From: an uncultured Actinomycetes bacterium
GTDB taxonomy: Bacteria > Actinomycetota > UBA4738 > HRBIN12
Length of the DNA: 64,000 bases
Assembly (NCBI GenBank): GCA_963728665.1
Contig: CAVSLG010000018.1
Span: forward strand, 221,096-285,095
Reading direction: 5' to 3'
Shown: piece by piece, positions 40,394 through 58,317 of the stretch
Layout of the letters: each line of letters begins with the position of its first letter
Numbering within the stretch: the stretch's first letter is position 1
Position numbers and translations under genes: made by a program
The notes under the pieces: model-generated
The model's input: the letters and a program-made list of their open reading frames with translations, nothing else
Database searches by the model: none
Told to the model about the DNA's origin: nothing

Positions 40394-43300
40394 TCATCCG
40401 CGACGGGCGACCCCGAGGTGGTCGAAGATGCCTTCGGCCTTCGTCGCGGCCGTGGTCGCTTCCTCGGTCTCGCCCGTCGTCCCGAGCGATCGGGCCAACC
40501 CCGCAAGGGCGTGCGCCTGCTCGAAACGGCCACCCCACGCTTCCCAGCCCGAGGCGAGCTCACGGAAGCTCGCGGCGGCCGACTCGGCGCTCTCCCCGCG
40601 CCTCGGCGAGCAGTGCGTGCGAGGACGCCACGGCGAGGCGCGTGCGTCGCACGTGCACGGGCCGGTCGCCCACGATGCGTCGCCGCCAGGTCGGATCTGC
40701 CCGCCGTCAACAGCGCGCGCACGACCTCAGGCAGGTAGAGCTCGCGGTACTCCGTCGGCCCGGCGCCGGTCGCGGCATCGAACTCCTCGGCGAGGGCGAT
40801 CGACCGCTGCCGGGTCACCCGCCGCGGCGTGCGCCGACGACCGCGACGACGAGCGCGGGCGCCAGCACCTGCAGATCCTCGATCTGGCGGGCGACCGGCA
40901 CGAAGGCTCTCGGCGAGCTCGACCGCCGCCGCCGCACGTCGCCGCGGTGGGCCAGCACCCGCGCTCGGTAGAGGTCGGCCACGGTGGCGATCTGCGTGTC
41001 GCCGTGCGCGGCGCGCCCACTCCGCGAGGTCGCTCGTCTCATCGAGCAGCTCGTCCCAGAGCCCCGCGTCGAACCGCAGCCAGAGCCCCTCGGCGCGCGT
41101 CCACATGCCCTGACCCTCGATGCCTCGGCGCCGGCAGAGGTCGACCGTGGCGCGGTTCATCGGCAGGCCGGTCGCGGGCCCGTCCTCGAGGCCGACCCAC
41201 TCGAGCAGGTAGGAGTACGAGGTGACGATGTCGATCGCCACGCCCGACGCCTCGGCGACTCGAGCGCCTTCCGCAGGTCGTCGACCCCCCCGAGGTCGCC
41301 GGTCTCGCACCGCGCGTTCCCACGCAGGTGCAGCGCCATCAGGGTCACCGTCTCGGTGCGCGGCAGCTCGAGGGCGCGCTCGGCCCACCGCAGCGACTCG
41401 TCGGATCGACCCGGCGAACATCTCGGCCTCGGACCGGCAGGCGTAGAGCTCGGACAGGACCTCCCTGGCCGTCGGGGTCGTCCTCGACGAGCGCGATGGC
41501 CTGCTCGAGGGCCTGCGTGCGCCGCCGCCGGTCTCGCCGCGCAGGCCGAGCTGGAAGTAGATCCGCCGCAGCACGCGAGCGGCGAGACGTCGATCGCCCG
41601 CCTCCATCGCCTCCCGCTCGGCGGTCCGGTACTCCTCGAGCGCGGCATCGCTCGTCATGCCGCCGGAACGCCAGCCGAGGCTCGTGGCGGTGCGACGGAT
41701 CTCGGCGCGCTCGGTGCCCGGGAGGCGCCAGCGCGAGCGCCTGCCGGTAGTACCCGGCGGCTCGGGCGGCGTCGAGCGACTGCTGCCGATCGCCGGCGAG
41801 CGACGAGGTAGCGCAGGGCGGTGGCCTCGAGCTCGGGGACGTCGTCTTCGAGGCCGGCGGCCCGAGCCAGGTCGAGGGCGCGCGTGGCGTGCGACGCGAG
41901 CAGGTCGGACTTCGCCGCCAGGCCGGCGTCGTGCGACGGTGTCGAGCCACGTCGTCACGTCGCCGATGCAGCCGCGACCGTGCCGCCCTCGGCAGGCGGC
42001 CGTACGCCACGTCGCGGATCAACGCATGCGCGAACGAGAACTCGGCCTCTCCCTCGATCGCGCTCGTCGAGGAGCGCCTGATCAGTCCGCGGCGCTGCAG
42101 GGTGTGCACCGATGCGTCGAGGTCGGGGGGGTCGGGCTCGAGCGCGACGAGGGCGCCTCGCCAGAACCGGTCGCCGATCACCGAGGCGGCCTGCAGCAGC
42201 ACACGCTCGGGGGCCTCGAGCGCATCGAGGCGCGCCGCGATCAGCGCCTGCACCGTGTCGGGCACCCCGACGCCGCGCCGGCCCGCCGAGGTCGGACCCG
42301 ATCGTACGACCGTGCTCGCCCTCGGTCCTGCAGCATGAGCACGAACTCCCGGGCGTAGAGCGGGTTCCCGCCGGCGCGGCGCAGGAGCGCGTCGCTCTCG
42401 CCGGTCGACATCACCGATCGCAGCAGCAGCGAGCCGAGCAGCTCGGACATCTCCGGGTCGGTGAGCGGCGAGAGCGAGATCGTCGTCGCGTTCGCGACGC
42501 CCGCGGCCCACCCCGGGCGACGGGCGAACAGCTCCGGCCGGGCCGTGCACAGCAGGAACAGCGGAACGTCGGGCGCGCGTTCCATGAGCCGTTCGAGGAA
42601 CTCGAGCAGGGCGTCGTCGGCCCAGTGCAGGTCCTCGACGACGATCGTGAGCGGTCGGCGCTCCGCCGCCGACTCGAGGTAGCGCGCCCACGCCGTGAAC
42701 GTCTCGTCGACGTCGGCCGGGCGTGTCGTCGTCGACCGGCAGCCCGACGAGCGGACGCAGCCGGGTGGCCAGCCAGTCCCGGTCCTCGGCGTTCAGGTCG
42801 AGCTCGGCCGAGGTCGGCGTCGAGGCGGCTCCGCAGCTCGTCGCCGGCCGCGTTCGGCATGATGCCGGCGATCGATCGCACGACCTCGTCGAGGGCCGCG
42901 TAGGTGATCGACTCACCGAAGGGACGGCACCGTCCGCGATGCCAGCCGACGCCGTCGTGGGTGGCCCGCAGATGATCGTGCAGGTCGAGCACGAGCCGCG
43001 TCTTGCCGATGCCGGGCTCGCCCACGACCGTGACCAGGCGCGGGGTGCGGTCGCCGATCGTGCGCTCGAGCAGGTCGTGCAGCAGCTCCCGCTCGCGGAT
43101 CGCGACCGACGAACGGCGGCGGGTCGTCCTCCTCCCGCTCGGGGGTGTCGGCGCGCACGGTCGTCGCCACGAACGCCACGAGCGGCTCGGCCTTGCCCTT
43201 CACCCGCGTCGCGGGCAGCGGCTCGTACTCCACGACGTGGCGGGTGGCGCGCTCGGTGGGCTCCCCGACGATCACCGAGCCCTCGGGTGCGAACGACTGC

Positions 43301-43866
43301 AGCCGCGAGGCGGTGTTGACGACGTCGCCGGCGACCCGTTCCCCGACCGTTGGACCCTCCCCGAACGTGACCAGCGCCTCGCCCGTGTGCACCGCGATGC
43401 GCACCGGCAGGTTGCCCTCGCGTCACGCGTTCACGGATCGCGAGGGCGGCTCGCACCGCCCGCTCGGGGTCGTCCTCGTGGGCCATCGGGGCGCCGAAGA
43501 CGCCCATCGCGGCGTCGCCGATGAACTTGTCGAGCGTGCCGCCGAACCGCTCGATCTCCTCCTTCGCGACCGCATGGAACGGCACCAGGATGCGGCGCAC
43601 GTCCTCGGGGTCGGCCTGGTCGCTGTGCTCGGTGAATCCGGCGAGGTCGGCGAAGACGATCGTCACGAGCCGCCGCTCCTCGAGGGGAGGGCCGGCCGGG
43701 TGCGGCGGCGCCGAGCGGCGAGCCGCACGACGGGCAGAAGCGAGCCTGCGGCGGCACCTCGGCTCCGCACGACGGGCATCGCAGGCCGAGCGGGGTGCCG
43801 CAGCGAGGCGCAGAAGCGAGCGTCGTCGTCGTTCGACGCCCGGCAGTTCGGACAGGGGATCGCCAC
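40394..43866 (-). pseudogene. Double zinc ribbon + class III adenylate/guanylate cyclase + AAA ATPase + TPR protein; many frameshifts (decay or read errors)
   Basis: CPNC..N...ARFC, ERRLVTIVFADL.GFT, DKFIGDAAMGVFGAP.AHEDDPERAVRAAL, GEPGIGKTRL, EDLHWAD, RAGGNPLY and FSFAHALIRDVAY in shifting frames. Confidence 0.8.
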
Positions 43867-43875
43867 GCGGCGAGT

Positions 43876-44335
43876 CTAGCGGCGAGCTCCTCGACCGCCG
43901 GGACTCAGGCCGGCGAGATGTCGACGTACCCGCCGGCGGTCGCGCGCACCGTGACCGACGAGCCGGTCGACGAGGCCCGGGTCCGGCCGAGACCACGACG
44001 GCACCTCGATGCCGTAGAGCTCGCCGGCCACGATCGACGCCGAGGGCGACGATCGCGTCGGCCTCGCCGAGCACCACCGCGACGGGCGCGGTGCCGGCGC
44101 GGATCGCCTCGGCGAACACGTACGAGCTCGAGCTCGACCCTCGGCCCGACGGCATCACGAGCACCCGCCCGGCGAGCGATCGCGCCCGACCTGCGGATGA
44201 TGGGTGTCGATCAGCTGCCGGTCTCGGGGTCGAGCCCGCCCCAGAAGCTGAGCGGCTCGTCGAGCACGAGCACCTCGCCCGTGGCCACGCCGGGCACGAG
44301 GACCCGCGATGCGGATCCGGGGCAGGCTCAGGCAT
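43876..44335 (-). CDS. Aconitase X swivel (small) subunit, DUF126-like, frameshifted
   Basis: GEVLVLDEPLSFWGG, LIDTHHPQ and GRVLVMPSGRGSSSSSYV. Confidence 0.8.
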
Positions 44336-45607
44336 CGCCCCACGACCGTCCGGTCGCGCACGAGGCGGCCCGCCTCGGCGGAGTCGACGCACTCCTCGAG
44401 CGTGGCGAACGCGACGTCGAAGCCCAGGTTGCCGGGCGCGTACCAGGCCCACTTGCCGGAGTTCGTGACGACCGGGGTGGCGGCGCGCTCGATGATCGGC
44501 GTGATGTAGGTGCAGGTGTCGGTCACGATCGTCACGCCCGCCGCCCGCAGCGCGTCGGCGACGTGCGACGCGTCGTGCGAGCACGTCGCGCCCGGTGTTC
44601 ACGTAGCACGGGCACCGCGAGCCGTCGTCCCTCGACGAGCTCGGCGAGGCGCCGAAGCTCGGCCGCCGAGCAGTGGGGCGTGCCCAGGCTCACGCTCCCG
44701 ACGGCGGCGCCGACCTCCACGGTCGACAGCTCGTCGCGCGCCGCCCGCAGGTCCGCGAGCCCAACGCTCGACGTCGAGCGCGGGCTCCGCCCCGCCGGTC
44801 GCCGCCTCGAGCGTCGGCGCCTCGGGGGTCACGCCGACCGCGTGGAACATCGCGACGGCGCCCGAGGACGCCGCCGCCGCGCCGAGGGCCTTCAGGTGGT
44901 CCTCGGTGGTCGTCGGCGGCAAGCCCGACGATCGCCGGCACGGCGTTGCCCGTTCGGCGACCGACCAGGTGCCCGATCGCGGCGTACGCCGCCTCGTCCT
45001 CGAGGAGCAGCCCGGGGAGCGCGCCGACCCGGAACACGGTCCTCGCGAGCCGTTCCCCGTCGAGGTGCAGGCCGGCCGCCGGAGCGCGGCCCGGTGATCG
45101 CGCAGCAGATGTCGATGAAGTCGCCGTAGCGACCCGTGCGGGCCCCGAGCACCGAGTTCGCGAACACGATCGCGTTCGACTCCGCCCAGGCGACGTGTTC
45201 GCCCGAGGCCGGGGCGCACCGGCAGCTGGTACGGCGCGCAGGTCCAGGTGGGGCGACAGCCCATCGCCACGTACGCGTCCATCAGCGCTCGGGCGTCGGC
45301 CGCCGTGCTCGGGGTCGAGGTGCACGAGCTCGGGGTGCAGCAGGTCGAGCGAGGAGACGTTGAGCGTCGTCGGGATCGCGACCCGGGCGCCGCCGTCGGC
45401 GAGGCGCCTCGCGAAGTCCAGGCCCGCCCGGCCGTGGTACAGGCAGCCGTCGATGTGCGCGGAGGTCACGTCGATGAGCTCGACGGCGTCCATCGCCTCG
45501 GCGGTGCGCGTGAGGATGCGCATCGCGAGCTGCACGGCCGCGCCGCGGTCGCCGTCGAGCGCCGCACGGTCGTCGCCGGAGAGGGAGAGGGAGAGGGAGC
45601 CGGGCAC
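44328..45607 (-). pseudogene. Aconitase X catalytic (large) subunit, DUF521-like; several frameshifts
   Basis: [57 protein letters not shown] and TNSGKWAWYAPG. Confidence 0.8.
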
Positions 45608-45701: not shown

Positions 45702-46361
45702 ATGACGAGCCTCAAGGCCGTGATGCTGAACTGCACGCTGAAGTACGCCCCCGAGGTCTCCAACACCGAGGCGCTGATGCTGAAGGTGAAGGAGTGGTGG
45801 GACACGATGGACGTCGAGACCGAGATCGTCCGCGTCACCGACTTCAACGTGCGCTTCGGGGTGAGCTCCGACGAGGGTCACGGCGACGAGTGGCCGCGGA
45901 TCCTCGAGAAGGTGAAGGCGGCCGACATCATCTGCATCGGCACGCCGATCTGGTTCGGCGTTCGCGGCTCGGTCGCCCAGCTGGTGATCGAGCGGCTCGA
46001 CGGCACCTACAACGAGCGGAACGCCGCCGGCCAGTACCCGCTCTACAACAAGGTGGGGTGCGTCGTCGTGACCGGCAACGAGGACGGCGCTCACGCCGCG
46101 GCCGAGACGACGCTGTTCAACCTGTCGCACCTCGGGTGCGCGATCCCGCCGAACGCCGACACCTACTGGGTCGGTGACGCTGGCCCGGGCCCGAGCTACA
46201 TCGAGGCCGGCGGCGAGCATCACGCGTACACGCAGCGAACGACGCGGTGGATGGCACACAACACCGTGCACCTCGCACGCATCCTGAGGGCCACGCCGAT
46301 CCCCGCCGAGGGCAACACGTTCGACGAGGAGACCGACCACGGCCCGATGCACAACGGGTAG
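45702..46361 (+). CDS. Flavodoxin-family / NADPH-dependent FMN reductase-like protein
   Basis: LNCTLK...SNTEAL, ADIICIGTPIWFG and YNKVGCVVVTGNEDG; GGAGGGG SD. Confidence 0.85.
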   Translation: MTSLKAVMLNCTLKYAPEVSNTEALMLKVKEWWDTMDVETEIVRVTDFNVRFGVSSDEGHGDEWPRILEKVKAADIICIGTPIWFGVRGSVAQLVIERLDGTYNERNAAGQYPLYNKVGCVVVTGNEDGAHAAAETTLFNLSHLGCAIPPNADTYWVGDAGPGPSYIEAGGEHHAYTQRTTRWMAHNTVHLARILRATPIPAEGNTFDEETDHGPMHNG

Positions 46362-46387
46362 CGGAGCCGCGCGGGTACGATGGCATC

Positions 46388-47020
46388 GTGCCGCTCCGCA
46401 TCGACGTCGTCAGCATCGTCGCCACCCACGACTACCCGGGGGAAGGGCCGACCGAGGTGCAGAACAACGTCTGGGTCGTGGGGGGCGACAGCGAGGTCGT
46501 GGTGATCGACGCCTCGCACGACGCCGGCCCGATCGTCGAAGCGGTCGCCGACCGGCGCGTCATCTCGATCGCCTGCACGCACGGACACTGGGACCATATC
46601 GACGCCGCCTTCGACCTGAGGGATGCCGTCGACGCCCCGATCCTGCTGCACCCCGCCGATGCGCCCGTCTGGCGGCGCACCCACCCTGATCGGGCGCCGG
46701 ACCGCGACCTCGCGGAGGGTGACCTGCTGGTGGCCGACGGCGTCGAGCTGCGGGTGCTGCACACCCCCGGTCACACGCCGGGGAGCGTCAGCTTCCACCA
46801 CACGGCGGGGCACGATCTGTTCGACGGCGACACGCTCTTCCCTGGCGGTCCGGGATCGACGGGGGACGAGCTCGGTGACTTCGAGGTCATCATCGCGACG
46901 ATCCGCGAGCGCATCCTCATCATGCCGCCCGAGACCGCCGTGTACCCGGGGCACGGCGACTCGACCACGGTGGGCGCGGAAGCCCAGCACCTGCATGAGT
47001 GGATCGAGCGCGGCTGGTAG
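46388..47020 (+). CDS. MBL-fold metallo-hydrolase (glyoxalase II-like)
   Basis: THGHWDH, HTPGHTPGS, GDTLF and PGHG; TACGAT 6 nt before the GTG. Confidence 0.9.
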   Translation: MPLRIDVVSIVATHDYPGEGPTEVQNNVWVVGGDSEVVVIDASHDAGPIVEAVADRRVISIACTHGHWDHIDAAFDLRDAVDAPILLHPADAPVWRRTHPDRAPDRDLAEGDLLVADGVELRVLHTPGHTPGSVSFHHTAGHDLFDGDTLFPGGPGSTGDELGDFEVIIATIRERILIMPPETAVYPGHGDSTTVGAEAQHLHEWIERGW

Positions 47021-47031
47021 TCCGGCGTGGA

Positions 47032-48942
47032 CTAGATCAGGGGGCCGGGCATCCCGTCGGGGTCGCCGTCGGCATAGGCCGTGGCGCCGTAGTCGGCGAG
47101 GTCGCGATCGGCGAGTGACTCCAGGAACGTCGTGCCGAAGACCGCCGCGAACTCCTTCTGGTCGAGCAGGTCCTGCTCGACGGCGCTGCGCGGCACGTAG
47201 GCGCCGATGTTCTGCCGGTAACGGTAGGCGGCGAGCGACGCGGCCACGTCTTCGATCGTCGCCCCGCCGTTGTCGCGCAGCCGATCGACGTTCAGGAAGA
47301 CCTCCGAGGGCACGACGCTCTCGACGATGCCCGTCACCCCGGAGAACCGGGACTCGACGTACCGCTCGAGCTGGATCGGGTCGAGCCGCACGCCGCCCAC
47401 CGAGTCGGGCAGCGGGCACTGCCCGTGGTCTGCGGTGATGATCAGCGCGTATTCGCCCGGGAAGGCGTTGTCGAGACGTTCCTTCATGCGCCCGATCTGC
47501 TGGTCGACGGCCCGGAGCTGCAGTCCCGTCCATCGCGACCCCATGCCGTACACGTGGCCGGTGTAGTCCGGTGACTTGTAGGTCGTGTAGAGGAGATCGG
47601 TCGCCTCATGCATCCCGACGCCCTCACAGATCATGCAGGTCGCGAGCACATCGTCCTGGTAGCGCACGATCGGCGGCCGGCAGCACGGCGACTGACGACC
47701 GACGGGCGCGAACTCGGCGTCCCAACCCGGATCGACGAACTCCGCCAGGTATCGCTCGTAGTTGTCCGGATCCGGCATCTGCGAGGGCAGGCGGTAGAGC
47801 TCGGGGTTGTGCGGCTCCCAGCGCTGGGAGCCATCCTCGTCCCAGTACACGCCGACGGGGAGGTCGCCCGGCGGGCGGCCGCGGCCGCCGTAGCCCAGCA
47901 TGCCGAGATGCCACACCTGGTACCCGATCTGGCCGACCCAGGCATCCCTCTCCTCGTGCCACAGGTCGGCGAGCGTGGGGATGTAGATGTCGCTCGGGTC
48001 GGCGGCGCCGGGTTCGCGGTACGCCTTGCGCACGACGCCCTCCGCGTCCCGCAGGTTGTGTCCGGTGATGCCGTGGGCGTTCGGGAAGGAGCCCGTGCCG
48101 ATCGTCGCATGCGCGCACGCCGTCACGGCCGGGAACGACCCGACGATCGCGTTGCGGAAGTTCGCGCTCTCGCCCATGAGTGCCCGGAGGTTCGGCCAGT
48201 CGTCGGGGAAGGCGTCGAGCACGTTCCAGCCGCCGCCGTCGATCACGAACGTCACGACGACGCGAGGGGGCGTCGTGCTCGTGGTCGACAGGGGCAGCTG
48301 CGTGCCGTCGCGGTCGCCGGGCCAGCCGTCGAAGCCGATCAGTTGCGCGGTCGTCGGCGCGAGGTCCGCAAGGGTGACGCGTTGCTCGGAGTCGCTGGGT
48401 GCCACGTGTCCGGGTGCGTGTACGAGGAGCGGGATGCGCTCGAGGTACATCCAGACGCTGGCGTGGCTCGTCCGCGGATCCTGCGGCACGAGCGAGAGCG
48501 ATTCCTGAGGATAGTTCGAGCTGTTGTACGGGGCGAGCAGCAGCTGAAGGTCGCCCGAGCGCCGCGGGACGAACGTGCGCCGCACGAGCTCCATGTACTC
48601 CGAGCCGAGGTCGGTGGCCATCTCCTCCTGGATCGGGCGCGGATCGGGGCGGCCGAGCTTGCGAGCGGCCCACCCGATCGACGGCCCGGCGACCGCCCAC
48701 ACGAGCCCGCCGAGGCCGGCGGCTACAAGCAGGTTGCGGCGCCCCGGGTCCGCTTCCGTGTGTGTCGCACGACCGGGGCCCCAGACGCTGATCGCGAGCC
48801 CCAGCGCCAGCGTGATGAGGCCGATCGAGACACCGAGCACCCACGATCCGGCGATGCCCACGACGAGTCCGAGGAGCCCGGCGAGGACCGCGAACACGGT
48901 CAGGGCACGGATGTCAGGGCGTCGTTCCATGGACACCTCCAT
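47032..48942 (-). CDS. Membrane-anchored alkaline-phosphatase-superfamily enzyme (PafA/NPP-like), apparently circularly permuted
   Basis: VIDG, VTACAH..I.TG..P..HGI.G, SPDYTGH and TADHG motifs, preceded by RSGD..H....RIPL..DLAPT; alternative start ATG48930. Confidence 0.8.
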   Translation of the reverse strand: MEVSMERRPDIRALTVFAVLAGLLGLVVGIAGSWVLGVSIGLITLALGLAISVWGPGRATHTEADPGRRNLLVAAGLGGLVWAVAGPSIGWAARKLGRPDPRPIQEEMATDLGSEYMELVRRTFVPRRSGDLQLLLAPYNSSNYPQESLSLVPQDPRTSHASVWMYLERIPLLVHAPGHVAPSDSEQRVTLADLAPTTAQLIGFDGWPGDRDGTQLPLSTTSTTPPRVVVTFVIDGGGWNVLDAFPDDWPNLRALMGESANFRNAIVGSFPAVTACAHATIGTGSFPNAHGITGHNLRDAEGVVRKAYREPGAADPSDIYIPTLADLWHEERDAWVGQIGYQVWHLGMLGYGGRGRPPGDLPVGVYWDEDGSQRWEPHNPELYRLPSQMPDPDNYERYLAEFVDPGWDAEFAPVGRQSPCCRPPIVRYQDDVLATCMICEGVGMHEATDLLYTTYKSPDYTGHVYGMGSRWTGLQLRAVDQQIGRMKERLDNAFPGEYALIITADHGQCPLPDSVGGVRLDPIQLERYVESRFSGVTGIVESVVPSEVFLNVDRLRDNGGATIEDVAASLAAYRYRQNIGAYVPRSAVEQDLLDQKEFAAVFGTTFLESLADRDLADYGATAYADGDPDGMPGPLI

Positions 48943-49008
48943 GTTCCCAGAGGCGCCCTCGCTGCAGATGGAGGTGCGTGTGGCGTTCCCGTTGCGACGG
49001 AACGCGCG

Positions 49009-50202
49009 CTAGCTGCGCTTGCGGTCCAGGTCGAGGAAGGGCAGCGGCACGACGGTCGCGGCGACCTTGCCGCGCTCGCCCTCGACGCTCCATTCGACGC
49101 TCAGGCGGGTGCCGGGCTTCGCGTGTCCCCTGTCGACCGAGCCGAAGCCGACCATCTTCTTGATCGTCGTGCCCCACGTGACCGAGGTGGCGCGGCCGAC
49201 CTGCTTCCCTTCCTTGTAGACGGGCACCGGGTCGCGGTGCACGAAGGGGCTGATCGCGGGGGCGAGGCCGTGCTTGGCGTACATCGCCTCGATGCCGAGC
49301 CAGTCGAGCTCGACGCCGACGAGCCGACGAACGGGACCACCGGCCGCGTGTTCGGCGCGCAGCGCCCGGCGCCCTGTGAAGTCCGTCGCCTTGCCGAGGT
49401 CGACGAGGGGCTCGAAGCCGAGCTCGTAGGGCGAGTACTGCTGTTCGGGCGCGATCGCGTGACGGGCGCTCGTGTACTCGGCCTCGATCAGGATCAGGCC
49501 GGCTTCCACCCGGGCGACGTCCATCGCGTTGATGCCCACGGGGAAGATGCCGTAACGCTCTCCGGCCTCGAAGATGCGGTCCCAGACGGGCAGCGCCTGG
49601 TCGGCGGCCATCCAGAGCTCGTAGCCCTGGTCGCCGGTGTAGCCGGTGCGGGTGACGTCGACGGCGACGCCGGCGATCTCGGTCATCCGGCGTCCGAAGT
49701 ACTTCAGATCGGTCCAGTCGGCGCCGGTGGCGTCCTGTAGCACCTCGCGGCTGAGGCGGCCCTGCAGGGCGAGCGCGGCCGTGCGGTCGCTGATGTCGTC
49801 GACGTCGACATCGAGCCCGGTGGCGTTCAGCACGAACCAGCGGTAACTGGGGTCGGCGGCCGTGATGCGGTAGGTGGTGTCGTCGAGGCGGGCGATCGTG
49901 CCGTCGTCGAGGACCTTGCCCTCCTCGTCGCACCAGGGCGAGTAGAAGACGCGGTCGACCCGCAGCTTCGTCATGTCGCGGGTCATCACCCGGTCGAGCA
50001 GTCGCTGGGCGTCGGGGCCCTTGACCTCGTACTTGTAGAGGGGGCTGATGTCGATGACCGCGGCGGCCTCGCGGATCGCGCTGTACTCGATGTCGTGGAA
50101 GTCGGCGTACACGGGCACCGAGAAGTACCCGGACCACTCGCCCCAGGCCATCTTCGAGTTCAGCGCTTCCTGGCGCGGGAAGAACGCGGTGGGCACGCTC
50201 AC
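49009..50202 (-). CDS. GcvT-like aminomethyltransferase / folate-binding protein
   Basis: EY.AIRE.AAVIDISPL.KY.V.GPDA, DEEGKVLDDG, TRTGYTGDQGYELW and G..AMD.ARVEAG. Confidence 0.88.
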   Translation of the reverse strand: MSVPTAFFPRQEALNSKMAWGEWSGYFSVPVYADFHDIEYSAIREAAAVIDISPLYKYEVKGPDAQRLLDRVMTRDMTKLRVDRVFYSPWCDEEGKVLDDGTIARLDDTTYRITAADPSYRWFVLNATGLDVDVDDISDRTAALALQGRLSREVLQDATGADWTDLKYFGRRMTEIAGVAVDVTRTGYTGDQGYELWMAADQALPVWDRIFEAGERYGIFPVGINAMDVARVEAGLILIEAEYTSARHAIAPEQQYSPYELGFEPLVDLGKATDFTGRRALRAEHAAGGPVRRLVGVELDWLGIEAMYAKHGLAPAISPFVHRDPVPVYKEGKQVGRATSVTWGTTIKKMVGFGSVDRGHAKPGTRLSVEWSVEGERGKVAATVVPLPFLDLDRKRS

Positions 50203-50295
50203 GGGTGGACCTCCTCGGTCGGTCGTGGGGCGCGCGAGGGACGCCCGACAGCGCGTAGGGTATCCGACCGCCGCCGGGCCGCGGCACGGACCGGA

Positions 50296-50310
50296 CTGAC
50301 CTGAGGTCAG
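50296..50310. promoter_or_regulatory. Palindromic operator candidate in the divergent intergenic region
   Basis: CTGACC-TGA-GGTCAG, a perfect inverted repeat. Confidence 0.45.
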
Positions 50311-50415
50311 GTGGCCGTTGGTGGGCGTTGTGACCCCCGGCTAGCATGGGCGACCGGCGACCCAGGCCGTGTTCCGGGACGCCCTGTTGACCTCGAGTCA
50401 CCCAGGAGGCACCCC

Positions 50416-52017
50416 ATGGCGAAGCGGTACGACGCGGTCGTGATCGGAGGCGGGCACAACGGTCTCGTGAACGCTGCGTACCTCGCCAAGGCGGGGCTGA
50501 AGGTGCTCGTGCTCGAGCGTCGGCACATCCTGGGCGGGGCGACCCTCACCGAGGAGATCGTGCCCGGGTTCAAGTTCTCGGTCTTCAGCTACGTCGTGTC
50601 GCTGCTGCGGCCCGAGATCATCCGCGACCTGCAGCTTCCGAAGCACGGGCTCGAGATCCTGCCGCTCGACGGCACGATCACCCCCCTCGAGGACGACTAC
50701 CTCTGGCGCGTGAACGACCACGGCAAGAACGTGCGTGAGCTGCGTCGCTGGAGCCTGAACGACGCCGAGGTCTACGAGGAGTACGGCCAGCTGATGGCCG
50801 AGATGGGCCGGTTCATCAAGCCGATCCTGTCGATCGCGCCGCCCGACACGGGGAAGATCACGCCGGGCCACTGGCTGCCGCTCGGCCCCCTCGCGAAGGC
50901 GTTCAAGGACCTTCCGAAGAAGATGCAGTCCACGTTCATCCAGCTGATGACGATGAGCGCCGCCGACTTCCTCGACCAGTGGTTCGAGACCGAGCCGCTG
51001 AAAGCCACGATGAGCGCCTCGGGCATCATCGGCACGTTCCAGGGGCCGCGGTCGCCCGGCACGGCCTATGTGCTGCTGCACCATTACATGGGCGAGATCG
51101 ACGGCGCGTTCCGTGCGTGGGGCGTGCCGAGGGGCGGCACCGGTTCGGTGGCATACGCGATCGCGAACAGCGCGCTCTCGCTCGGCGTCGAGATCCGCAC
51201 CGAGGCGGGCGTCTCGCACATCAAGACCGCGAACGGGCGCACCACCGGGGTCGTGCTCGGGTCGGGCGAGGAGATCGAGGCCGACGTCGTGATGAGCTCG
51301 CTCGACTCCCGCCAGACGTTCATCAACCTGCTCGACGAGCACGACCTCGAGCCGTCGTTCCGCGACGAGGTGATGCGCTACAAGTACCGCGGCTCGAGCG
51401 GGAAGGTGAACCTCGCGCTCAGCGGGCTGCCCGAGCTCGCATGCAAGCCGGGCGTCGGTCCGTGGCTGCGCGGCGCGATCTCGTTCTCGCCGTCGCTCGA
51501 CTACATGGAGCGCGCCTACGACGACGCGAAGTACGGGCGGCCGTCGGAGCGCCCATACATCGATTGCATCATGCCCACGCTCGTCGACCCGACGATGGCG
51601 CCTCCGGGCAAGCACGTGATGAGCTGCTTCGTGCAGTACGCGCCCTACCATCTCGAGAATGGCGAACAGTGGGACGACGAGAAGCGCGAGGCGTTCGGCC
51701 AGAACGTGATCGACACGCTCGAGGAGCGCTTCCCGAACATCCGGTCGCTGATCGAGGGCTCACAGTTCGTGACGCCGAAGGACATCGAGGACATCACGGG
51801 TCTCAGCGAAGGCAACATCTTCGCGGGCGAGCTCTCGCTCGAGCAGCTGTTCTTCAACCGCCCGGTGCCAGGCTGGGCGCGCTACGAGACGCCCGTGAAG
51901 GACCTGTGGATGTGTGGGTCTGCGACGCACCCGGGCGGCGGCATCATGGGTGCGCCCGGCATGATCGCGGCGCGCGAGTACCTGAAGCAGCGCAAGCGGG
52001 GAAGGAGGGCGGCGTAG
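50416..52017 (+). CDS. CrtI/phytoene-dehydrogenase-like (PYROXD2-type) FAD oxidoreductase 1
   Basis: VIGGGHNGLV.AAYLAKAG, GGATLTEE..PGFKFS and CGSATHPGGGIMGAPG; AGGAGG SD. Confidence 0.88.
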   Translation: MAKRYDAVVIGGGHNGLVNAAYLAKAGLKVLVLERRHILGGATLTEEIVPGFKFSVFSYVVSLLRPEIIRDLQLPKHGLEILPLDGTITPLEDDYLWRVNDHGKNVRELRRWSLNDAEVYEEYGQLMAEMGRFIKPILSIAPPDTGKITPGHWLPLGPLAKAFKDLPKKMQSTFIQLMTMSAADFLDQWFETEPLKATMSASGIIGTFQGPRSPGTAYVLLHHYMGEIDGAFRAWGVPRGGTGSVAYAIANSALSLGVEIRTEAGVSHIKTANGRTTGVVLGSGEEIEADVVMSSLDSRQTFINLLDEHDLEPSFRDEVMRYKYRGSSGKVNLALSGLPELACKPGVGPWLRGAISFSPSLDYMERAYDDAKYGRPSERPYIDCIMPTLVDPTMAPPGKHVMSCFVQYAPYHLENGEQWDDEKREAFGQNVIDTLEERFPNIRSLIEGSQFVTPKDIEDITGLSEGNIFAGELSLEQLFFNRPVPGWARYETPVKDLWMCGSATHPGGGIMGAPGMIAAREYLKQRKRGRRAA

Positions 52018-53598
52018 ATGGCTTCCCCCACCGACGTCGTCGTGATCGGCGGAGGCCACAACGGCCTCGTCGCTGCCGCGTACCTCGCGAAGGCGGGCCG
52101 CAAGGTCACGCTGCTCGAGGGGGCGCCCGAGGTCGGTGGCATCCTGCGGACCACCTCTCCCGCCGAGGGTGTCACCGCCCCCGGCATCGCTCACACCGTG
52201 GGACGCCTGCGCGCCTCGGTCGTGAAGGACCTGCAGCTGTCGTCGTTCGGCTTCGAGGCGATCGCGCCCGCCGTGCGCATGTTCGCCCCGCAGCCCGACG
52301 GCTCGGCCGTCACGTTCTGGGGCGATCCCGCTCGCACCGCGAACGAGTTGCGTGATCGCAACGCCCACGACGCCGACGCGTTCGGCGGCTTCGACGCCAA
52401 GATGCGCTCGATCGCGAGCTTCCTCGCCTACATCAACGTCGCGACCCCGCCCGATGCGAGGTCGCCCTCGATCGCCGACGCGATGATGGGCCTGAAGCTC
52501 GGGAAGGCCTTCCGTGACTTGGGAGGCAAGGCCGGGCGCGAGGCGATCCGCGCGCTGCCGATGGCGGTCGCCGACCTCGTGCAGGAGGTCTTCGACGACG
52601 AGGCGGTGCGAGGGCCGTTGACCACCCGTGGCGTGCTCTTCACATCGATGGGTCCCTGGGCGACGGGTACCGCGGCGGTGTTCCTGAACGACTCGGCCGG
52701 AACCGACGGCGGCGCGGCGGGCACCACGGTGTTCGCGCGCGGCGGCACGGGAGCGCTCGCGGAGGCGCTCGAGGGCGCCGCCAAGGCCCGAGGGGTCGAC
52801 GTGCGCACCGGCGCCGAGGTCGTCGCGATCCGATCGACCGACGGGAAGGTGCGCGGCGTCACCCTCGCCGATGGCACCGAACTCGACGCCACGTTGGTCG
52901 TGTCGGCCGCCGACCCGAAGCGCACCCTTCGTCTCTGCGACCCAGTGGAGCTGAACCCGTACGAGGTCTGGCGGGCCGAGAACATCCGCCAGCCGGGCAC
53001 GACCGCCAAGGTCAACCTCGTGCTCTCGGGCCTGCCGGCCTTCAACGGTGCCGACGACGTCGAACGGCTGAAGGGTCGCATCGTCGTCGGAACGTCGATC
53101 GATCACGTCGAGCAGGCGATGGACGCGAACAAGTACGGGCACGTCGCAGAGGACCCGATGCTCGAGGCCACGATCCCCACGCTCGTCGATCCGTCGCTGG
53201 CTCCTGAGGGCAAGCACGTGATGTCGATCCTGTTCCAGGCTGCGCCTCGCAGATTGCGCGACGGTGACTGGGCGGGTGAGCGCGACCGGGTCGCCGACAT
53301 CGCCGTGAAGTCGATGGAACGGTTCGCGCCGGGCCTGGGTGAGCTCGTCGAGGCACGCGAGGTGATCACGCCCGAGGACATGGAGACCGACTACGGCCTC
53401 ACCGGTGGCCACGTGTACCACGCAGAGCCCGGCCTCGATCAGTTCTTCGCGTGGCGCCCCATGAACGGCGAAGCTCGCTACCGACTCCAGATCGATGGTC
53501 TCTACCTGGCCGGCTCGGGCGCGCATCCCGGCGGCGGCATCACGGGCGGTCCAGGCGCGAACGCGGCACGACAGATCCTCGTTGAGACGAAGCAGTAG
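52018..53598 (+). CDS. CrtI/phytoene-dehydrogenase-like FAD oxidoreductase 2
   Basis: IGGGHNGLVAAAYLAKAG and LAGSGAHPGGGITGGPG; ATG directly follows the upstream TAG. Confidence 0.88.
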   Translation: MASPTDVVVIGGGHNGLVAAAYLAKAGRKVTLLEGAPEVGGILRTTSPAEGVTAPGIAHTVGRLRASVVKDLQLSSFGFEAIAPAVRMFAPQPDGSAVTFWGDPARTANELRDRNAHDADAFGGFDAKMRSIASFLAYINVATPPDARSPSIADAMMGLKLGKAFRDLGGKAGREAIRALPMAVADLVQEVFDDEAVRGPLTTRGVLFTSMGPWATGTAAVFLNDSAGTDGGAAGTTVFARGGTGALAEALEGAAKARGVDVRTGAEVVAIRSTDGKVRGVTLADGTELDATLVVSAADPKRTLRLCDPVELNPYEVWRAENIRQPGTTAKVNLVLSGLPAFNGADDVERLKGRIVVGTSIDHVEQAMDANKYGHVAEDPMLEATIPTLVDPSLAPEGKHVMSILFQAAPRRLRDGDWAGERDRVADIAVKSMERFAPGLGELVEAREVITPEDMETDYGLTGGHVYHAEPGLDQFFAWRPMNGEARYRLQIDGLYLAGSGAHPGGGITGGPGANAARQILVETKQ

Positions 53599-54738: not shown

Positions 54739-55833
54739 ATGATCTCGCTCGAGCACGTCGAGAAGCGTTACCCCGGAACGTCCTCCCCGGCCGTCGGCGA
54801 CCTTACGCTTGAGATCGACGAGGGCGAGACCGTCGCGCTCGTCGGGCCGTCGGGCTGCGGCAAGACCACGACGCTCAAGATGATCAACCGGCTGATCGAG
54901 CCGACGGGCGGACGCATCGTGCTCGACGGCACGAACGTGCTCGACCAGGACCCGGTGCAGCTGCGCCGGGGCATCGGCTACGTGATCCAGCACACCGGTC
55001 TGTTACCACACCGCACCATCCGCCAGAACATCACGACGGTGCCGCACCTCGTCGGCTGGGACGACGGTCGAATCGCCGGCCGCGTCGACGAGCTGCTCGA
55101 GATCTTCGACCTCGACCGGGAGCTCCTCGACCGATACCCGGGGGAGCTCTCCGGCGGCCAGCGCCAGCGGGTCGGCGTCGCCAGAGCGCTCGCCGCCGAC
55201 CCGCCGGTGATGCTGATGGACGAACCGTTCGCGGCGGTCGATCCGATCGTGCGGGGACGGCTGCAGGATCAGTTCCTCGAGATCCAGGAGCGGCTCCGCA
55301 AGACGATCGTGTTCGTGACCCACGACGTCGACGAGGCGATCAAGCTCAGCGACCGGATGGCGATCCTGAACATCGGCGCGGTCCTCGAGCAGTTCGACCC
55401 GCCCGAGACCGTGCTGCGTGAGCCCGCGAACGACTTCGTGCGCGAGTTCGTCGGGGCTGAGCGTGGCCTGAAGCGGCTCGCCCTGATCAAGGTCGACGAC
55501 ATCGAGGTGGAGCCCGGCCCCGTGGTGGCTCCGAGCGCCGGCGCCGACGAGGCCCGGCGCGCGATCGATGCCGCCGGCTTCGGGTGGGTCAGCGTGGTCG
55601 ACGACGGGGAGTTGCTCGGGTGGGTCGACCACCAGGCGCTGGAAGGGTGTGCCACGGCGGGCGAGGCCATTCCGAGAAGGTTCAGCGCGTACGTGACCGG
55701 ACGCGACTCCCTGCGCCAGGCCCTCGATTCGATCGTCACGTCGCGGACGGCGGTCGCCGTCGTGGTGACCGAAGGCCAGCACTACCGGGGCCTCTTGACG
55801 CTGGAGCGCATCTCGAAGGAGATCCTCGCGTGA
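54739..55833 (+). CDS. Osmoprotectant ABC transporter ATPase (OpuCA/ProV-like) with CBS domains
   Basis: GPSGCGKTT, LRRGIGYVIQ, LSGGQRQRVGVARAL and MDEPF.AVDP. Confidence 0.92.
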   Translation: MISLEHVEKRYPGTSSPAVGDLTLEIDEGETVALVGPSGCGKTTTLKMINRLIEPTGGRIVLDGTNVLDQDPVQLRRGIGYVIQHTGLLPHRTIRQNITTVPHLVGWDDGRIAGRVDELLEIFDLDRELLDRYPGELSGGQRQRVGVARALAADPPVMLMDEPFAAVDPIVRGRLQDQFLEIQERLRKTIVFVTHDVDEAIKLSDRMAILNIGAVLEQFDPPETVLREPANDFVREFVGAERGLKRLALIKVDDIEVEPGPVVAPSAGADEARRAIDAAGFGWVSVVDDGELLGWVDHQALEGCATAGEAIPRRFSAYVTGRDSLRQALDSIVTSRTAVAVVVTEGQHYRGLLTLERISKEILA

Positions 55834-56543
55834 GCGACCTCGTCGTCGGCGCCACGACGTTCCTCGCCCAGCAGGACACCGAGCCGCTGATCCGCTGGAT
55901 CTGGATCTCCGACCACGTCGACGAGATCGCGAGCCGGGGGCTGCAGCACGTCTACCTGACGATCGTGACCGTGGTGATCGGGTTCCTGATCGCGTTCCCG
56001 GCGGCCGTCTACGCCTCGAGACACCGGTGGGCGGTCTCGCCGATCACGTCGATCTCCGGGGTGCTGTACACGATCCCGGCGTTCGCGTTCATCTTCCTGC
56101 TGCTGCCGATCACCGGCCTGTCGCTCACGACCGTGGTGATCCCGCTGATCGCGTACAGCCTGCTGATCCTGTTCCGCAACACGCTCGCGGGTCTCGACTC
56201 GGTGGAGCCCGAGGTGAAAGAAGCCGCCGTCGGCATGGGGCTGTCACGCCGGCAACTGCTGTGGCGCGTGGAGGTGCCGCTCGCGATGCCGGTGATCATC
56301 GCGGGCCTGCGCATCGCGACGGTGAGCTCGATCGCACTGATCACGATCGCGGCGCTGATCGGCAGGGGCGGGTTCGGCCAGTTCATCCTCGACGGCCTCA
56401 ACACGTTCTTCTGGACCCCGTTGATCGTCGGCGTCGTGTTGTCGGTCGCACTGGCGTTCGCCGCCGATCTGCTGCTGCTCGGTCTGCAGCGCCTCGCGAC
56501 ACCCTGGGCGAGGACCTCGGGCGTCAGGGCGGTCGCCACGTGA
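55830..56543 (+). CDS. Osmoprotectant ABC permease 1
   Basis: YTIPAFA; EAA loop (KEAAVGMG); GRGGFGQFI. Confidence 0.9.
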   Translation: MSDLVVGATTFLAQQDTEPLIRWIWISDHVDEIASRGLQHVYLTIVTVVIGFLIAFPAAVYASRHRWAVSPITSISGVLYTIPAFAFIFLLLPITGLSLTTVVIPLIAYSLLILFRNTLAGLDSVEPEVKEAAVGMGLSRRQLLWRVEVPLAMPVIIAGLRIATVSSIALITIAALIGRGGFGQFILDGLNTFFWTPLIVGVVLSVALAFAADLLLLGLQRLATPWARTSGVRAVAT

Positions 56544-57253
56544 ACGGCCTGTTCGAGGGGCTGTTGTGGCTCGTGGATGCCGCGAACTGGTCGGGGGTGG
56601 ACGGCATCCCGGCTCGGGTCTGGGAACACGTGCAACTCTCGCTGATCTCCCTCGTGATCGCAACGCTGATCGCGGTGCCCATCGGCCTATGGATCGGTCA
56701 CACGCGTCGGGGTCAGTTCTGGACCGTGCAGCTCGCGAACCTCGGACGGTCGGTGCCTTCGCTCGCGGTACTGTCGATCGCGTTCCTGCTCGTGCTGAAG
56801 CTCGCGCCCAAGGACCATCAGGAGCTCGCGTTCGGGTTCCTGCCGACGATCGTGGCGCTCACCCTGTTGGGCATCCCGGTGATCCTGATCAACACGTATG
56901 TGGGCATCCAGCAGGTGGACCCCGACACCGTCGAGGCGGCGCGTGGCATGGGCATGAACGGCCGGCAGGTGCTCTGGAAGCTCGAGGTGCCGATGGCGAT
57001 GCCGTTGATCATGACCGGCCTGAGGCTCGCCGCCGTGCAGATCGTCGCCACCGCCGGCCTCGCCGCCCTGATCGCCGGCGGAGGGCTCGGCCGGTACATC
57101 GTCGACGGGTTCGCGTTGCGTGAGAACGACAGGATCGTGGCGGGCGCGATCCTCGTGGCGGTGCTCTCGTTGCTCACCGATCTCGGGTTCTCGCTGCTGG
57201 CCAAGGCCACCTCGCCGAAGCTCAGCTCCGAACCAGGGAAGGTTCCCGCGTAA
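56540..57253 (+). CDS. Osmoprotectant ABC permease 2
   Basis: RSVPSLA; EAARGMGM; GGGLGRYI. Confidence 0.9.
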   Translation: MNGLFEGLLWLVDAANWSGVDGIPARVWEHVQLSLISLVIATLIAVPIGLWIGHTRRGQFWTVQLANLGRSVPSLAVLSIAFLLVLKLAPKDHQELAFGFLPTIVALTLLGIPVILINTYVGIQQVDPDTVEAARGMGMNGRQVLWKLEVPMAMPLIMTGLRLAAVQIVATAGLAALIAGGGLGRYIVDGFALRENDRIVAGAILVAVLSLLTDLGFSLLAKATSPKLSSEPGKVPA

Positions 57254-57375
57254 CGTTCGGTTCCTTGCCGTGACCGCACCGCATCGTTTGACAAGAACGA
57301 ACGCGCCGTTGATACGGTGCTCGATGTCCACCGTCGGGGAGATGGACACCCCATGACCGGATGGAGGGGTAACCC

Positions 57376-58317
57376 ATGCGGAAGCACCGCATGTTCGTCC
57401 TCGGGGCGGGCCTCCTCGCGTTGTCGTTGTTCGCGGCCGCGTGCGGGGACTCGGGTGGGGACGACACGGGCGGCGGCGCCACCGACACGGCGAGCGCCGA
57501 GCCCAAGGGCGAGATCGTCGTCGGGGTGTCCGGCGCGTTCGCCGAGAACCAGGTCGTCGCCGAGATGTACGCACAGGTGCTGGAAGCCGACGGCTACACC
57601 GTGACGCGAGAGCTCGACATCGCCGACAGGGCGGTGGGTAACGAGGCGCTCGCCGCGGGCGAGATCGACCTGAAGCCCGAGTACACGGGGTTCGACCTGC
57701 CGCTGTACGACGAGAAGGCCGCCACGAACGGGGAACCGCAGGCTGTCGCCGACGCGCTCACCGCAGCGCTGGAGCCCGAGGGGCTCGTGACGTACGCGAT
57801 CTCGCCGGCCAACAGCACGAACGTGTTCGTGGTGACGCCCGAGACCGCCGAGGCCAACTCGCTGACCGACATGAGCAGCCTCGCATCGGTTGCCGGTGAT
57901 CTCACCCTCGGTGGTCCCGCGGACTGCCCGAAGGCCGCGTTCTGCGTGCCAGGGCTCGAGGAGACGTACGGGGTGACGTTCGCCGAGTTCAAGCCACTGG
58001 ACTTCGGCGGACCGAAGACGGTCGCGGCGATCGACAGCGGCGCGGTCGACGTGGGCGTGCTGTTCTCGCTCGACCCCACGATCCAGGACAAGGGGTACGT
58101 GGTCCTCACCGACAACGAGAACCTTCAGGCCAACGGGAACTTCATCCCGGTCGTGCGCGAGGAGATCGCGAGTGACGAGCTCGGGGGGCTCCTCGACAGC
58201 GTTACGACGTCGCTGACCGACGAGAACATGCGCGAGATGGTGGGGCAGATCCAGAACGACAAGCGCGACGTATCCGACGTCGCGTCGGAGTACCTGACCA
58301 ACGCGGGCATCCTCTAG
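57376..58317 (+). CDS. Osmoprotectant ABC substrate-binding lipoprotein (OsmF/OpuCC-like)
   Basis: Lipobox FAAAC; F.ENQVVAEMYAQVLE, PEYTG and GLEETYG. Confidence 0.9.
   Translation: MRKHRMFVLGAGLLALSLFAAACGDSGGDDTGGGATDTASAEPKGEIVVGVSGAFAENQVVAEMYAQVLEADGYTVTRELDIADRAVGNEALAAGEIDLKPEYTGFDLPLYDEKAATNGEPQAVADALTAALEPEGLVTYAISPANSTNVFVVTPETAEANSLTDMSSLASVAGDLTLGGPADCPKAAFCVPGLEETYGVTFAEFKPLDFGGPKTVAAIDSGAVDVGVLFSLDPTIQDKGYVVLTDNENLQANGNFIPVVREEIASDELGGLLDSVTTSLTDENMREMVGQIQNDKRDVSDVASEYLTNAGIL

Follow-up and report, generated by a model that had tools for sequence, protein, structure and literature searches.

A PafA-like phosphatase of uncultured Actinomycetota whose sequence is a circular permutation of the canonical alkaline phosphatase order

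In the study of enzyme evolution, of catalytic promiscuity and of high-throughput mechanistic enzymology, the alkaline phosphatase (AP) superfamily, and PafA especially, is a textbook case. Here we describe a predicted phosphatase gene of this superfamily from an uncultured Actinomycetes bacterium, located in a stretch of 64,000 nucleotides (hereafter the window; positions 221,096 to 285,095 of contig CAVSLG010000018.1, GenBank assembly GCA_963728665.1). The best match to the encoded protein, in both sequence and fold, is PafA, the phosphate-irrepressible phosphatase of Flavobacteriia (5TJ3/5TOO; NCBIfam NF042991). The two proteins, at ~15–20% identity, have the Thr nucleophile and every metal ligand in common. 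However, PafA has the canonical chain order, whereas here the C-terminal module comes first, and PafA carries a signal peptide in place of the N-terminal anchor of two transmembrane (TM) helices and a twin-arginine (RR) motif found in the protein from uncultured Actinomycetota. PhoK/SPAP of Sphingomonas (3Q3Q, 5XWI/5XWK), the second-best Foldseek match, is homologous in three pieces, namely, the D/T region, the DxxxH/DH region and the C-terminal RSGDL...H...PxLA module. Unlike the protein described here, to which it has low identity, PhoK is a soluble secreted enzyme of canonical order. The NPPs (Xanthomonas NPP, ENPP1-7; PF01663) share the bimetallo site and the Thr nucleophile, but just positions 1–242 of the 342 in the Phosphodiest profile are collinear with the protein, the remainder lying upstream, and the large insertions at residues 301–445 and 511–636 are PafA-like rather than NPP-like. 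The protein is a topological variant within the AP superfamily (NPP/PafA branch), and its order does not exclude it from membership.

The gene is a single open reading frame of 636 amino acids plus a stop codon, without internal stops, in DNA of ~70% G+C. Many orthologues begin at a Met aligned with residue 5. The original prediction, made from the letters of the window, had outlined the feature as 47032–48620, which takes in the soluble domain and leaves out the first ~107 residues, the membrane part; it mentioned neither the two-TM and twin-arginine anchor nor the size of the family. From the N- to the C-terminus, the gene consists of the following parts:

47032..48942, minus strand: whole open reading frame, a permuted PafA-like AP-superfamily enzyme (Pfam, NCBIfam, phmmer, orthologue alignment).
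48778..48906, minus strand: hairpin of TM1 and TM2, residues ~13–55 (sequence; helices 9–31 and 34–54 in the AlphaFold2 (AF2) model; kept in 28 orthologues).
48652..48750, minus strand: twin-arginine-like motif D65-P-G-R68-R69 and third hydrophobic helix, residues 65–97 (invariant columns; AF2 helix 66–97).
48295..48597, minus strand: relocated module, residues 116–216 (profile against the PDB, Pfam, phmmer).
48463..48465, minus strand: codon of His160 (aligned to the His of PafA 'GTTHS' and PhoK 'ATHGS'; invariant across the family).
48262..48294, minus strand: Ser/Thr/Pro-rich linker, residues 217–227 (poorly conserved and length-variable in the orthologue and diverse alignments).
48043..48261, minus strand: canonical N-terminal core, residues 228–300 (the Phosphodiest match begins at profile position 1, residue 229; PafA 9–213 corresponds to residues 217–414).
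47608..48042, minus strand: insert between the nucleophile and the second set of metal motifs, residues 301–445 (pairwise PafA alignment; invariant R356, C420 and C421).
47413..47607, minus strand: metal-ligand motifs D459-x3-H463 (SPDYTGH) and D505-H506 (TADHG), residues 446–510 (Pfam, NCBIfam, phmmer; invariant columns).
47035..47412, minus strand: C-terminal auxiliary ('cap') region, residues 511–636 (by the NCBIfam PafA alignment given below).

The relocated module corresponds to the strand-loop-strand-helix unit at the C-terminus of PafA/PhoK. It is made up of the RSGDL strand, the TSH160AS metal-ligand loop, the IPLLVHAPG strand, the LADLAPT197 helix and DGxxL. The linker that follows joins the canonical C- and N-termini and measures 11–25 residues across the family. 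The N-terminal core holds β-1 with D235 (VIDGGGW), the nucleophile T274 (AVTACAH) and HGITGHN296, and the insert after it contains GGR354xR356, aligned to PafA K162/R164, and the invariant pair C420-C421. The protein had been predicted to carry the C-terminal motifs of the fold ahead of the N-terminal ones, and the positions proposed for them proved accurate. The leading RRSGDL...TSHAS...IPLLVHAPG...LADLAPTTAQLIG occupies residues 127–203 (nt ~48564–48334); VVTFVIDG, expected at about 48240, has D235 at nt 48240; the VTACAH nucleophile, expected at about 48120, is T274 at nt 48123; SPDYTGH, expected at about 47560, contributes D459/H463 at nt ~47570–47556; and TADHG, expected at about 47425, contributes D505/H506 at nt ~47436–47424. 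The order of ligands is H..D..T..DxxxH..DH, and not the canonical D..T..DxxxH..DH..H.

The swapped order is seen with Pfam, phmmer and a profile of the relocated segment. In Pfam, Phosphodiest (PF01663) positions 1–242 of 342 match residues 229–529 with 106.4 bits against a cut-off of 23 (E=3e-30), and the C-terminal end of the Sulfatase profile (positions 264–300 of 301) matches residues 167–203, ahead of the Phosphodiest match. A phmmer search against all PDB chains aligned residues 118–206 to PhoK/SPAP 454–536, residues 220–301 to 34–116 and residues 441–514 to 282–354, and aligned the core to PafA 9–213 and 277–345. For the segment profile, residues 114–216 were excised from 19 diverse family members and searched alone against the PDB. 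Over the full 100 profile positions, this segment, proposed earlier to be the displaced end of the fold, does align to the C-terminus of PafA (440–528 of 549, E=8e-15) and to PhoK 453–546 (E=5e-9). Further matches of the segment profile fall in the C-terminal regions of LtaS, phosphopentomutase, iPGM and many sulfatases. The invariant His of the segment is aligned with that of PafA 'GTTHS', which in canonical enzymes is the final Zn ligand.

At the other end of the chain, positions 290–440 of 554 in the NCBIfam PafA model (NF042991) correspond to residues 435–577. PafA homology stops at model position ~440, with ~60 more residues following in the open reading frame, so that the protein, as had been predicted, ends in the cap region. 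The core match breaks off at PafA ~440, which is also where the N-terminal segment takes over, so that the two pieces meet at a single cut point. At its far end, the segment reaches PafA 528 of 549, near the canonical C-terminus, and after the linker the core starts at PafA ~9. Each module is present once, there is one cut point and the old termini are linked, as in a natural circular permutation. A duplicated C-terminal module was considered and rejected, since the segment hidden Markov model (HMM) gives one match per protein. De-permutation in silico, with residues 100–216 moved behind residue 636, left the NCBIfam and Pfam scores unchanged, because HMMER adds up local stretches irrespective of their order. 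As judged from sequence, the chain order is a clean rotation, i.e., a circular permutation, far above chance.

The same order is found throughout a large family. A word-indexed search gave 857 homologues at E<=1e-3; the 120 homologues listed are nearly all full-length, most of them 630–640 amino acids long and 58–92% identical, come from many independent assemblies and bear database names that go at most as far as 'alkaline phosphatase family protein'. A HMMER scan of 1.84 billion cluster representatives (50% identity) yielded 2482 matches at E<=1e-3, of which 638 reach E<=1e-10 and 151 reach E<=1e-30. The full-length HMMER matches are single and collinear and begin at query residue ~108–160, hence they include the relocated segment. 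Order was tested with three HMMs, for the segment, the D/T core (coreN) and the DxxxH/DH core (coreC). All 215 full-length proteins classified in this way have the order segment–coreN–coreC, the remainder being fragments, and the canonical order occurs in none of the proteins classified with the three HMMs. The permutation is old, probably arose once or very few times and defines a large, diversified, unnamed family. The search for full-length homologues of the same order thus bears out the earlier suggestion of a natural permutation over that of a misassembly. The permutation had also been put forward as one without a known description. A full-text literature search, with most subscription journals outside its reach, found no report of natural circular permutation in the AP superfamily, NPP or PafA; in the one paper with both terms, only an insertion in phosphonoacetate hydrolase was at issue.

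The catalytic residues of the permuted protein are strongly conserved. In an alignment of 28 orthologues (59–92% identity), H160, D235, T274, D459, H463, D505 and H506 are invariant in 28/28, and the same seven residues are invariant or >=90% conserved in 20–26 relatives of 23–37% identity. H160 and T197 are invariant in all the orthologue and diverse alignments that we made. Further invariant columns in the 28 orthologues are H278, N296, R356, C420-C421 and C509, whereas R354 is variable. The bimetallo ligand set (Asp; Asp-x3-His; Asp-His; C-terminal His) and the Thr nucleophile are therefore complete, and the seven residues are also kept in six paralogues of ~30% identity, in agreement with the prediction that the metal ligands are retained. 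A pseudoenzyme was rejected on the grounds of the invariance of the seven residues in the orthologues. The AF2 model built from the 28-sequence alignment (predicted template modelling score 0.73, mean predicted local distance difference test (pLDDT) 72) has pLDDT 85–93 for residues 170–230, which span the junction between the segment and β-1. The best Foldseek matches in the PDB are PafA 5TOO and SPAP 5XWK, and the top matches, with probability 1.00, also include PhnA and NPPs. The model and Foldseek agree on an AP-like α/β fold, at moderate model quality.

From the conserved residues we infer PafA/PhoK/NPP-like catalysis, in which a Thr nucleophile at a bimetallo site forms a covalent phospho-enzyme. 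The last ~90–100 residues of the canonical chain would be represented by residues 116–216, connected to β-1 by the short variable linker, and the chain would end where the canonical enzyme enters its final module, at PafA ~440. D459, H463 and the relocated H160 would form the first Zn2+ site, and D235, D505 and H506 the second, which would activate T274. T274 would then attack the phosphoryl group to give a phospho-Thr intermediate, to be hydrolysed by a metal-bound water. In the monoesterase site of PafA, the phosphoryl oxygens are contacted by N100, K162 and R164. In one pairwise alignment, N296 and R356 are aligned with PafA N100 and R164, and variable R354 with K162. N296 and R356 do not vary within the orthologue group, and this member alone among the paralogues of the genome keeps both; none of the three equivalents is conserved in the paralogues. 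The retention of N296 and R356 may, with low confidence, hint at monoesterase-like chemistry.

The N-terminal anchor (48652–48930, minus strand) consists of two TM helices followed by a twin-arginine-like motif, here GRRNLL, and a third helix, after which the metallo-enzyme domain begins. D65, R68 and R69 of the RR motif are invariant in the 28 orthologues, and the family consensus is DPGRRRFL. The NCBIfam TAT-region match is weak (residues 62–86, E=1.9), and the twin-arginine motif does stand before a hydrophobic helix at the sequence level. The N-termini of the paralogues are ordinary signal-peptide or lipoprotein-like sequences, unlike the anchor of the orthologue group. Two TM helices and an RR motif before the third helix would put the catalytic domain outside the membrane, possibly by export through the twin-arginine translocation (Tat) system. 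The actinobacterial Rieske protein (e.g., Streptomyces Sco2149) is a three-TM, dual Sec/Tat-inserted protein. It has the same layout of two TM helices, a twin-arginine motif, a third helix and a cofactor-containing extracytoplasmic domain, but its catalytic domain is unrelated to that of the phosphatase.

Taken together, we put at roughly 85% the probability that the gene product is a two-metal phosphoesterase from the PafA/PhoK/NPP branch, anchored in the membrane with its catalytic domain outside the cytoplasm, and that its chain is the canonical fold in a natural circular permutation. Several observations weigh against this. The active-site loops 137–161 (including H160), 460–466 and 510–518 have pLDDT <50 in the AF2 model, and the putative position of H160 at the metal site comes from homology and conservation only. 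In Foldseek, the model has modest TM-scores of 0.38 and 0.46 with PafA, and the alignment, being sequential, cannot reveal a permutation. The correspondence of R354/R356 to PafA K162/R164 was obtained from one pairwise alignment in a divergent region, and the two residues are not conserved in the paralogues. Finally, the NF042991 score is 87.9 bits in three stretches against an equivalog cut-off of 650 bits, so that the phosphatase is not PafA itself, but PafA-like.

In one alternative, the protein would be a domain-swapped oligomer in which the relocated segment completes the active site of the neighbouring subunit and the monomer alone is incomplete. Many AP-superfamily enzymes are dimeric, the linker between the segment and β-1 is short and variable, and the loop bearing H160 is of low confidence in the monomer model. 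Yet residues 170–230, running from the segment into β-1, are modelled as one continuous unit in the monomer with pLDDT 85–93, and the segment ends at the canonical C-terminus while the core starts at the canonical N-terminus, which is the geometry of a simple intramolecular permutation. We consider a domain swap improbable.

Another alternative draws on the membrane anchor. Together with the Thr nucleophile and the extracytoplasmic AP-superfamily domain, it would also suit a phosphotransferase like LtaS, EptA/MCR-1 or OpgB, which moves a phospho-alcohol head group from a lipid to an envelope acceptor. The segment profile does match LtaS (E~2e-3), and the many paralogues include lipoprotein-like ones. 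However, transferases of the LtaS/EptA type have a 5-TM domain and a reduced site that holds essentially one metal, whereas here all seven residues of the bimetallo set that typifies NPP/PafA are invariant. In both sequence and fold, the protein best matches hydrolases, namely, PafA and PhoK/SPAP, and the neighbouring genes described below are catabolic, not envelope-biosynthetic. We consider such a transferase improbable as well. That the order is an assembly or annotation artefact, with a contig that is chimeric or two gene fragments that were fused in a fragmented genome (31 contigs, 75% complete) where one paralogue is split between two frames, is improbable in the extreme, since the open reading frame has no internal stops, the catalytic residues are invariant, and the same full-length architecture recurs across hundreds of assemblies made independently, among them contigs that are closed or of megabase size, which rules out misassembly.

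The permuted phosphatase is one of several in its genome of 3.35 Mb. The six intact permuted paralogues are ~30% identical to one another, and all have the seven catalytic residues; the genome also holds two canonical PF01663 genes. Two permuted paralogues lie in tandem on contig C5 (C5:39292-42979). An intact paralogue elsewhere on this contig (C5:76685-78607, minus strand) adjoins a divergently oriented dead copy (C5:78438-79796, plus strand), in which all seven positions are changed or lost (H160->D, D235->K, T274->P, D505/H506->G/T). A further permuted copy (C9:17603-19296) is broken over two frames, has 4 in-frame TGA codons and is either a pseudogene or a sequencing error. Related genomes contain three or more tandem permuted paralogues (e.g., G299:C1:492339-496200, G088:C25 and G265:C142), and some of the permuted-family matches in them sit in open frames of 1000–1180 amino acids. 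The permuted family has many paralogues per genome, and some of them are catalytically dead.

To follow the family across the phylum, we used a junction profile made of the segment and the D/T core. Of 401 Actinomycetota genomes drawn evenly, 76 (~19%) contain the family, with up to 8 copies each, and the full-length matches of the profile at E<1e-57 concentrate in the taxonomic order of the window's genome and in one other family-level group. Close orthologues, recognised by two orthologue-specific peptide patterns, occur in 224 stretches of a species-representative genome collection. The best 80 of these 224 stretches, from which the counts out of 80 orthologous loci given below are taken, belong to uncultured Actinomycetes/Actinomycetota metagenome-assembled genomes. 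No match was obtained when 72,556 plasmids were searched by tblastn with a family member. Two divergent permuted members of 23–25% identity (L099:8001-9659 and L100:1775-3343) lie on contigs of 47% and 36.5% G+C, and their neighbours are unrelated (PspA and COQ7-like in one case, TldD/PmbA and Ldh_2 in the other). Given the G+C content of these contigs, the family reaches beyond high-GC Actinomycetota, and members outside this group imply that the permutation predates deep diversification.

The genes around the phosphatase form a partly conserved neighbourhood, with the following features in the window:

49009..50202, minus strand: GcvT-like aminomethyltransferase, 66 nt upstream of the phosphatase gene on the same strand (Pfam GCV_T and GCV_T_C).
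49009–53598: module in which two PYROXD2/CrtI-like amine-oxidase flavoprotein genes (plus strand) diverge from the gcvT-like gene (minus strand).
54739–58317: OpuA-type betaine/choline ATP-binding cassette importer after the flavoprotein genes (ATPase with CBS domains, two permeases and an OpuAC binding protein).
45768–47020, plus strand: flavin mononucleotide (FMN)-reductase-like gene and metallo-β-lactamase (MBL)-fold hydrolase gene, which separate the phosphatase from AcnX here.
41345–45607, minus strand: AcnX (aconitase-X) matches over at least two overlapping frames.

The gcvT-like gene is directly upstream of the phosphatase in 73 of the 80 orthologous loci, and the two are also paired in 9/10 regions of 20 kb from ten other genomes of the same order. 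A promoter and terminator scan of 46900–49300 found no site, including between the two genes, which are probably co-transcribed. A divergent flavoprotein gene is present in 61/80 loci, and the block of gcvT-like, flavoprotein and phosphatase genes in 9/10 related genomes. The importer adjoins in two of the ten other genomes. AcnX follows downstream on the same strand in 40/71 loci and abuts the phosphatase in 18 of them. The FMN-reductase and MBL genes are found in only 12–14 of the 80 loci, and thus look like a lineage-specific insertion into an older gcvT–phosphatase–AcnX unit. Within the AcnX region of the window, the open reading frame 44690–45607 matches AcnX positions 2–97, that at 44599–45282 matches AcnX 219–265, and the AcnX swivel domain lies inside a 1085-amino-acid open frame (41345–44602). 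These scattered frames may reflect a frameshift, an assembly error or confused calling of open reading frames in high-GC DNA.

This context hints at catabolism of N-methylated or betaine-type compounds. With low confidence, the substrate could be a phosphorylated compound that serves as precursor for the catabolism of N-methyl-amines or betaines, and our working guess, held no more firmly, is that the phosphatase frees an N-methylated or betaine-type compound, or phosphate, from such a precursor outside the cell. A wider scenario may be drawn, in which one ancient permutation gave rise to a large AP-superfamily clade beyond high-GC Actinomycetota, and the orthologue group would be a dual Sec/Tat-inserted, membrane-anchored phosphoesterase that carries out, outside the cytoplasm, the opening step of a conserved gcvT-like–phosphatase–AcnX pathway (with two PYROXD2-like flavoproteins and a betaine-type importer), in which a phosphorylated precursor gives up an N-methylated or betaine-type compound. 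As a whole, we hold this scenario to be doubtful. The synteny that ties the phosphatase to N-methyl-amines comes from one family of uncultured Actinomycetota, and it is absent from the single locus (L096) analysed from another family of the same order; both facts count against the link.

The widespread natural permutation relocates one metal ligand to the opposite end of the chain and indicates that the fold tolerates a new order. It offers a natural experiment on folding order and Tat-coupled metal loading. It also explains the partial profile coverage (242 of 342 positions in Pfam) and the generic names under which the proteins are found. Marker-gene surveys based on phoA, phoD, phoX and pafA may miss the permuted family. 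In uncultured Actinomycetota that are abundant in soil, the family has expanded to 3–8 copies in each small genome, and it may be an unrecognised contributor to the turnover of organic phosphorus.

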